Shown: piece by piece, positions 3,399-3,792 of the stretch
Layout of the letters: each line of letters starts with the position of its first letter
Numbering within the stretch: position 1 is the first letter of the stretch
Virus genome (UHGV): UHGV-1332412
Length of the DNA: 10,167 bases
Strand: one strand, 5' to 3'
Source: a virus
Notes under the pieces: generated by a model
The model's input: only the letters and a program-made list of their open reading frames with translations
Told to the model about the DNA's origin: nothing
Databases searched by the model: none
Position numbers and translations under genes: made by a program

Positions 3399-3597
3399 CG
3401 TAACCTGTCGGATCGCCGGAAAGGACCCGAAAAATGATAATAATTATCATCTACATATCACAACGTGCATCTACGCCATCAAACCACGTCAAATAATCAA
3501 TTATGACGCAGGTATCGTATTAATTGATCTGCATCAACTTAACGTAAAAACAACTTCAGACAATACAAATCAGCGACACTGAATACGGGACAACCTC

Positions 3598-3792
3598 ATG
3601 TCAACGAAGAACAGAACCCGCAGAACAACAACCCGCAACATCCGCTTTCCTAACCAAATGATTGAACAAATTAACATCGCTCTTGAGCAAAAAGGGTCCA
3701 GGAATTTCTCAGCCTGGGTCATTGAAGCCTGCCGTCGGAGACTAACGTCAGAAAAGAGAGCATATACATCAATCCAAAGTGATGATGAATAA
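3598..3792 (+). CDS. Small basic protein (64 aa), possible ribbon-helix-helix DNA binder; resembles the small conserved ORF next to cos in E. coli cryptic prophages (YlcI/DUF3950-like, by recall only)
   Basis: ATG at 3598 with GGGA 9 nt upstream. Arg/Thr-rich N-terminus (MSTKNRTRRTTTRNIRFPNQMIEQINIALEQKG) gives a beta-strand-then-helix pattern typical of RHH proteins. It is on the strand opposite to the packaging and lysis genes. Confidence 0.5.
   Translation: MSTKNRTRRTTTRNIRFPNQMIEQINIALEQKGSRNFSAWVIEACRRRLTSEKRAYTSIQSDDE

Follow-up and report, generated by a model that had tools for sequence, protein, structure and literature searches.

Does the small gene beside the cohesive-end site of a lambda-like phage encode the regulator of the palindrome that lies next to it? 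The question arises from a stretch of viral DNA of 10,167 nucleotides (UHGV virus genome UHGV-1332412), referred to here at its full length as the window, in which a preliminary description paired a short perfect palindrome near cosN with a 64-aa protein resembling ribbon-helix-helix (RHH) DNA-binding proteins, and proposed that the two form a regulator and its operator. Our analysis indicates that they are probably not a pair, because the palindrome corresponds in sequence to a site for the host repressor Fur and the small gene encodes a separate conserved protein. The reading that we favour, and consider likely, is that of two adjacent, separable elements, namely a Fur operator belonging to the cos module and a cassette made of a spacer and an open reading frame (ORF), with effects of the kind proposed below.

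The window represents a lambda-like prophage or phage, oriented opposite to the lambda map (Table 1). The genes on the far side of cos from Nu1 and gpA include bor, the spanins, a lysozyme, an S21-type holin, four tRNA genes, Q, RusA and a gene for a DUF968 protein. The tRNA genes (Met-CAT, Lys-TTT, Thr-TGT and Gly-TCC) form a row on the - strand at 6398-6707, between the Q antiterminator and holin genes. The cohesive-end sequence of cosN was read directly off the window and is the reverse complement of the lambda cohesive end, GGGCGGCGACCT; linear phage records terminate at it, that of 434 at window position 3399 and that of lambda at 48502. The packaging-termination subsite cosQ was placed through the records of phages 434 and 21, in which it is annotated 24-30 nt from the right end, and the window sequence is identical to the annotated one. 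Positions 3380-3800 share 96.7-98.3% identity with lambda, 434, HK629/630 and many other phages, and matches to 3200-3800 were found in 4633 of 5426 complete E. coli genomes, often in several copies (median two matching places per genome).

Table 1 Features of the window around cos (strand given as + or -, or as a dot for features without strand)
Feature	Position	Strand	Description
gpA terminase gene	764-2689	-	Full-length
Nu1	2664-3209	-	Pfam Phage_Nu1
cosN cohesive-end sequence	3387-3398	.	12 nt, AGGTCGCCGCCC
cosQ	3422-3428	-	Packaging-termination subsite, GGGTCCT (reverse complement AGGACCC)
Predicted Fur box	3432-3456	.	Core 3435-3449; conserved footprint of ~25 bp; A-tract upstream, T-R-C-A downstream
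Sigma-70 promoter-like site, weak	3434-3463	-	-35 TTGTGA (3463-3458), 18-nt spacer, -10 TATCAT (3439-3434)
Non-coding spacer	3451-3597	.	147 bp; under constraint, likely control region of the ORF
Inverted repeat	3496-3528	.	ATCAATTATGACG / CGTATTAATTGAT; 13-nt arms, 7-nt gap
ylcI/ynfO-type gene	3598-3792	+	64 aa, ATG start; DUF3950, probable ribbon-helix-helix

The perfect 15-bp palindrome, TGATAATAATTATCA, exists as first described, one base away from where it had been placed (3435-3449 rather than 3434-3448), and is the core of a perfect 8+1+8 palindrome, ATGATAATAATTATCAT, at 3434-3450. Its start lies 36 bp past the cohesive end, in agreement with the geometry originally given relative to cos, and 6 bp past cosQ. 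A perfect 8+1+8 palindrome alone is unremarkable, at least one being present in 31% of windows simulated under a Markov-1 model, and it is the sequence itself that is non-random. A second perfect 8+1+8 palindrome, AAAGTTACCGTAACTTT, occurs at 5818-5834 within a DUF1327 ORF (5535-5885). The reading of the Fur box as a 7-1-7 element, TGATAATnATTATCA, is reportedly that of Baichoo and Helmann in 2002. Compared with this consensus the palindrome has zero mismatches, all 14 of the 14 specified positions being matched; in shuffled windows 0.04 matches are expected at up to two mismatches, and any such match was seen in 7 of 200 shuffles. The classical 19-bp Fur box, GATAATGATAATCATTATC, is matched at 16 of 19 positions at 3430-3448. 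Judged by its sequence, the palindrome is an exact-consensus site for Fur, the iron-sensing repressor of the host, and a Fur operator of an already-described kind. It shares with canonical Fur operators at iron-uptake promoters (fhuA, fepD-entS and aerobactin iucA) the 19-bp or 7-1-7 consensus, overlapping sites and -10-like hexamers within them, and differs from these in having neither an adjacent iron-related gene nor a convincing promoter and in lying inside a DNA-packaging site.

Fur-binding clusters at the same site in two E. coli K-12 prophages, upstream of nohA and nohB, are said to have been described by Stojiljkovic in 1994 and by Vassinova and Kozyrev in 2000, in addition to Chen and colleagues in 2007. 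Two K-12 intergenic regions, nohA-ynfO of Qin and nohD-ylcI of DLP12, align with the window at about 97%; DLP12 and the window share an identical palindrome, from which the Qin and lambda copies depart at the centre base only. For nohA, Chen et al. 2007 (PMC2189734) report a Fur-site cluster at 1634624 (22.3 bits, 25 bp, position -233), an oligonucleotide of which was retarded in gels by Fur at 150 nM, and state that a nohA fragment had been cloned earlier through Fur titration or in vivo Fur selection. The nohB cluster of DLP12 at 579824, the one identical to the window's, is the third strongest of the genome in the same study as a prediction of 25.3 bits, the gel-shifted oligonucleotide being that of nohA (PMC2189734). 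These coordinates coincide with the palindrome centres at 1636600 and 580601 in NC_000913.3 once corrected for genome version, by an offset of +1976 derived from the nohA start codon and one of +777 deduced for DLP12, and each K-12 palindrome is the sole zero-mismatch site of its own locus. In the window, 233 bp counted from the Nu1 start at 3209 likewise lead to 3442, the centre of the palindrome. The K-12 clusters and the window site are thus the same DNA element, centred 233 bp upstream of the start codon of a Nu1 homologue; unlike the nohA and nohB loci, the window retains with this element a full-length gpA gene and intact cosN and cosQ. A ChIP-seq summit at 1634625 was listed by Myers et al. 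2013 among operons known as Fur-bound, later papers cite nohB as a Fur-regulated gene, and databases assign the site to nohA. By analogy with the published binding of the orthologous nohA DNA, Fur would be expected to bind the window palindrome.

The distribution of the palindrome follows lambda-type cos rather than the ORF. It is present in lambda, 434, phi80, 21 and, as a version with three mismatches, N15. BLAST homology of phi80, N15, 21, HK225, mEp237 and Stx1 phages ends at query position 69-80, so that in these divergent phages it spans cosN, cosQ and the palindrome and stops within ~10 bp beyond the latter. Using a cosQ-proximal pattern we gathered 128 loci, of which 115 had a flank of 800 bp or more and were counted, scoring a Fur box at up to two mismatches and a gene of DUF3950, the family of the 64-aa protein, within 3 kb. 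Box and DUF3950 gene occurred together in 68 loci and the box by itself in 24 (phi80, 21 and Stx1_9793 among them), 23 had neither, and none had a DUF3950 gene only; the counts are not independent, since many of the 68 co-occurring loci are near-identical. N15 falls just under the box threshold and is also without a DUF3950 gene. Across 47 distinct cos contexts, palindrome positions 2-7 and 9-15 are nearly invariant (1.06-2 bits, and at least 1.25 bits except at position 4), and conservation extends over a footprint of ~25 bp (about -2 to +22), the size of the cluster of Chen et al., with approximately zero information outside it.

These patterns leave almost no credence for the palindrome being a functionless chance feature of AT-rich DNA. 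The frequency of such palindromes in simulation and a local G+C content of 40% would be compatible with a chance origin; the exact consensus, the near-invariance of the motif in 47 contexts whose flanks diverge, and the published binding of Fur to the orthologous site all argue against it.

The palindrome and the ORF can also be separated. In Stx1_9793 the block of spacer and ORF is missing and the Fur box abuts the sequence that follows the ORF in the window; the absence is clean, and the spacer and ORF (~3451-3796) therefore behave as a discrete cassette. Phages of the BP-4795 type carry a DUF3950 gene in the same slot without a Fur box, a slot flanked in them by the lysis genes and, on the other side, by an unrelated module (HNH / small-terminase / large-terminase). 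Among species-representative genomes, a Fur-like site was present within 450 bp upstream of the DUF3950 gene in one of 26 chromosomal or other loci and in none of 17 satellite-like loci. The Fur box belongs to the lambda-type cos module and is separable from the ORF.

On this evidence we consider it highly improbable that the 64-aa protein binds the palindrome as its operator, whether for autoregulation or for an action at cos. The idea draws on the short distance between palindrome and ORF (148 bp), on the structural prediction that the protein is probably a dimeric DNA binder, and on the sampled lambda-type cos loci, in which a DUF3950 gene never occurs without the palindrome. It is contradicted by the exact Fur consensus and the binding of Fur to the orthologous site, by the 24 palindrome loci that have no DUF3950 gene, by the DUF3950 genes of BP-4795-type phages, satellite-like elements and chromosomes that have no such site (the one chromosomal or other locus in 26 excepted), and by the clean separability of the cassette from the Fur box. 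The palindrome accordingly did not hold up as the operator originally suggested. It is conceivable that YlcI supplied by another copy acts in trans on the Fur boxes of phages that lack the gene.

A further reading takes the palindrome as an accessory cos subsite, at which a bound host protein, Fur or another, would help terminase to stop and cut in the manner of IHF at cosB. The palindrome is conserved within the exchangeable cosN-cosQ block, with homology ending right beyond it, and by the packaging polarity of lambda (PMC4669245) a translocating terminase arrives at cosQ from the palindrome's side. Site I1 for IHF in lambda cosB is a likeness in that a site for a host DNA-binding protein is embedded in a lambda-type cos region; I1 has a demonstrated packaging role, and the Fur box differs from it in its variable spacing from cosQ and in being missing from about a fifth of contexts. 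As a lambda cos subsite the palindrome would be universal and at a fixed distance, whereas 12 of the 59 distinct lambda-type cos contexts are without it, and in the others it lies 3-8 bp from cosQ, a range of about half a helical turn. The cos literature (PMC4669245) gives cosQ as a 7-bp site, with no mention of such an element. We therefore regard a subsite function as very unlikely.

The ORF is a real gene under purifying selection. As first described, it encodes a basic protein of 64 aa (pI 10.8) at the distance given above from the palindrome, on the + strand, opposite to Nu1 and gpA; six of its first 16 residues are Lys or Arg. A Shine-Dalgarno-like GGGA is found at 3587-3590, and the 434 record includes an annotated ribosome-binding site. 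Comparison with divergent alleles across codons 1-52 gave a dN/dS of 0.04-0.1 at a dS of 0.7-2.1. The protein matches Pfam PF13132 (DUF3950; E 2.3e-20, 72.6 bits versus a cutoff of 25), NCBIfam NF041551 (YlcI_YnfO_N; 37.6 bits versus a cutoff of 30) and phrog_949, with weak PHROG matches to HicB-like (E 0.009) and Arc-like (E 0.029) proteins, and is a member of the already-known, uncharacterised YlcI/YnfO (DUF3950) family, whose signature is NFSAWV-x-(E/D)-A-C. The C-terminal tail beyond about residue 50 (3748-3792) exists in at least six unrelated versions, with total lengths of 61-97 aa, a mosaic that points to a recombination boundary inside the gene.

Structure prediction lends weak support to the RHH-like character ascribed to the protein at the outset. 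The AlphaFold2 monomer model has a mean pLDDT of 72 and indicates a strand-helix-helix topology of ~45 residues, with the predicted strand segment unpaired. Matches in a fold search were dominated by RHH proteins. By sequence, the best solved chain was a CopG-family RHH protein, matched in register and weakly (E = 1). No Pfam RHH family matched at E <= 10, and kinship with the Arc repressor was rejected on profile comparison (probability 2%). The 64-aa protein thus probably adopts an RHH fold. It resembles P22 Arc/Mnt and CopG/MetJ in its small size and phage origin, its basic N-terminal arm, a short strand segment (NIRFP) and two helices, and differs from them in lacking significant sequence similarity and in having a family signature of its own. 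Type II RHH antitoxins (ParD, CopG-type TacA and HicB-like proteins) are comparable in size, predicted fold and the weak HicB-like PHROG match (E 0.009); unlike in those systems, no toxin gene adjoins the ORF, and the next gene on the + strand is bor (4155-4448), 360 bp downstream.

In reference lambda (NC_001416.1), complement(48109..48303) is an intact 64-aa DUF3950 ORF without annotation, the product of which differs from the window protein at three residues. The name lambdap79 was considered for this ORF and rejected, as it belongs to a different gene on the other strand. The gene lambdap78 carries the label 'head protein' and, with the place of ybcV/ydfO in K-12 as a guide, appears to be a DUF1398 gene. 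In K-12, as in the majority of lambda-like loci sampled from other genomes (many of these loci being lambda-DNA contaminants), the DUF3950 gene has a DUF1398 gene (ydfO/ybcV) downstream of it on its own strand. In Qin the two genes are 58 bp apart; the window has no DUF1398 gene. Contigs of ~3.5 kb from the lambda end region were encountered in assemblies of unrelated organisms (Streptomyces, Cohnella, Staphylococcus, Colwellia and others), together with hundreds of error-laden protein variants, and most likely represent lambda control or spike-in DNA contaminating public data. Such error-laden copies, which are mostly the closest protein matches, were left out of the alignments and the selection analysis.

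The spacer between palindrome and ORF evolves more slowly than the synonymous sites of the gene. Its Jukes-Cantor divergence is 0.06-0.13 in sequence pairs for which the ORF has a dS of 0.7-2.1, a rate 6-15 times lower. An RNA element in the spacer was rejected, there being no Rfam match and folding z-scores of +0.56 and -0.87 on the two strands. Slow divergence without an RNA signal suggests that the spacer is densely packed with DNA-level signals transmitted together with the ORF, and the conserved spacer is probably the ORF's own control region; a different recombination history of the spacer is left as a residual alternative. Phylogenetic footprinting of the spacer resolved no individual sites among alleles that are 84-100% identical. 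The arms of the inverted repeat in the spacer are 85% complementary; in one allele (L103), in which another pair is broken as well, it shows a compensatory A-T to G-C change. On its sequence, this repeat is the best candidate operator for the ORF product.

Which genes the Fur box would control is less certain. The promoter-like site that overlaps it reads towards cosN and Nu1, with its -10 inside the box. It can be regarded only as a candidate, since it scores 9/12 in the consensus scan, loses its -10 in the lambda/Qin allele (TATCAC) and has no equivalent in phage 21 or the Stx1 phage. Some alleles have a 7-bp insertion and combine the same -35 with a different -10, likewise within the box. 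As the site varies among alleles, a conserved promoter towards cos was rejected.

The alternative here is a Fur box acting chiefly on transcription that leads away from cos to ylcI and on to bor, and we judge it unlikely. Both genes lie downstream of the box on the same strand, and in a 2025 study ybcVW and nohB transcripts, from either side of the DLP12 site, rise together, with Fur among the regulators named for the responding genes. If this direction were correct, iron limitation, for example in serum, would switch on lysogenic-conversion genes. The box centre is, against this, 156 bp upstream of the ATG, the consensus scan gave no + strand promoter for the ORF above 8/12, and databases assign the site to nohA. 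Moreover the box, or a near match to it, is retained in phi80, N15 and 21 though their adjacent genes read towards cos, so that nothing on the far side is there for the box to control. In two of these phages a gene reading towards cos lies at most ~1.2 kb from the cos-proximal Fur box, encoding a protein with a TonB C-terminal domain in phage 21 (L004 764-1090) and a 'putative Fur-regulated protein' in phi80 (L002 961-1191).

Repression towards cos and Nu1 is favoured because the published site is assigned to nohA and nohB, and by this analogy we consider it the most likely direction, although we hold it loosely. Starting from the identity and distribution of the site, the selection acting on ORF and spacer and the binding data for nohA, we infer the direction and effect of Fur control, the RHH dimerisation and the target of the ORF product as follows. 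Fe2+-Fur dimers would bind the 7-1-7 core of the palindrome, and an overlapping second Fur site, shifted by 6 bp, would produce a footprint of ~25 bp starting 3-8 bp from cosQ. Fur would then repress, in an iron-dependent manner, transcription that starts in or crosses the AT-rich site towards cosN and Nu1-A; divergent Fur control of the ylcI side would also be possible. The spacer and ORF (3451-3792) would constitute a self-contained cassette, with the Fur box on one side of the insertion and the bor region on the other. The YlcI/YnfO protein would dimerise into an RHH DNA-binding protein, with its own upstream spacer, and there the 3496-3528 repeat as a candidate, a more likely target than the Fur box.

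Outside lambda-type phages, DUF3950 genes are common in small integrative elements with an integrase and a P4/D5-type primase (L130, L134, L240 and several of L274-L300), which look like phage satellites; examples are at 3590-3772 and 4001-4363 in L130 and at 4001-4390 in L134. Some of these elements encode fusions (P0248 and P0190) of DUF3950 with the DNA-binding N-terminus of a Terminase_2 small subunit, both domains scoring above their Pfam thresholds and a second, stand-alone DUF3950 gene adjoining. No lambda-type cos was detected in the sampled stretches of the DUF3950-bearing satellite-like elements. Divergent chromosomal DUF3950 genes in a Candidatus Pantoea species, a Rouxiella species and other assemblies lie directly downstream of genes for a TonB-dependent receptor, DUF2946, CopC or cytochrome bd (L216/L217 1434-3725, L219/L220 965-3692 and L215 998-3680), and L219/L220 have a Fur-box cluster upstream of the receptor gene. 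A general link of DUF3950 with Fur or iron, as suggested by the TonB-dependent receptor neighbours, was rejected on the low frequency of Fur-like sites upstream of these genes (1/26 chromosomal or other and 0/17 satellite-like loci).

Both parts of the locus are of already-known kinds, an operator of the K-12 Fur regulon and a member of the DUF3950 family, and reference lambda (NC_001416.1) itself carries the Fur box together with an intact, selected 64-aa gene that is absent from its annotation. In the literature on phage packaging and Fur that we searched, no paper connects this Fur site with cosQ or with the biology of terminase, and no experiment on the exact window DNA or on lambda came up. 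A bolder possibility, which we rate as quite unlikely, is that the Fur box is a functional and exchangeable part of cos that couples packaging or terminase supply to the iron status of the host. Fur just upstream of cosQ might slow or mark the translocating terminase at the genome end, or it might silence a cos-proximal Nu1-A promoter until iron is depleted, and YlcI, whose family is found beside two unrelated terminase systems, might modulate such a coupling at cos. What the locus leaves is the question of why one of the strongest Fur sites of E. coli adjoins cosQ in lambda, 434, phi80, 21 and, in slightly degenerate form, N15, and with it the modestly interesting question of how iron status may bear on the genome end of lambda-type phages.
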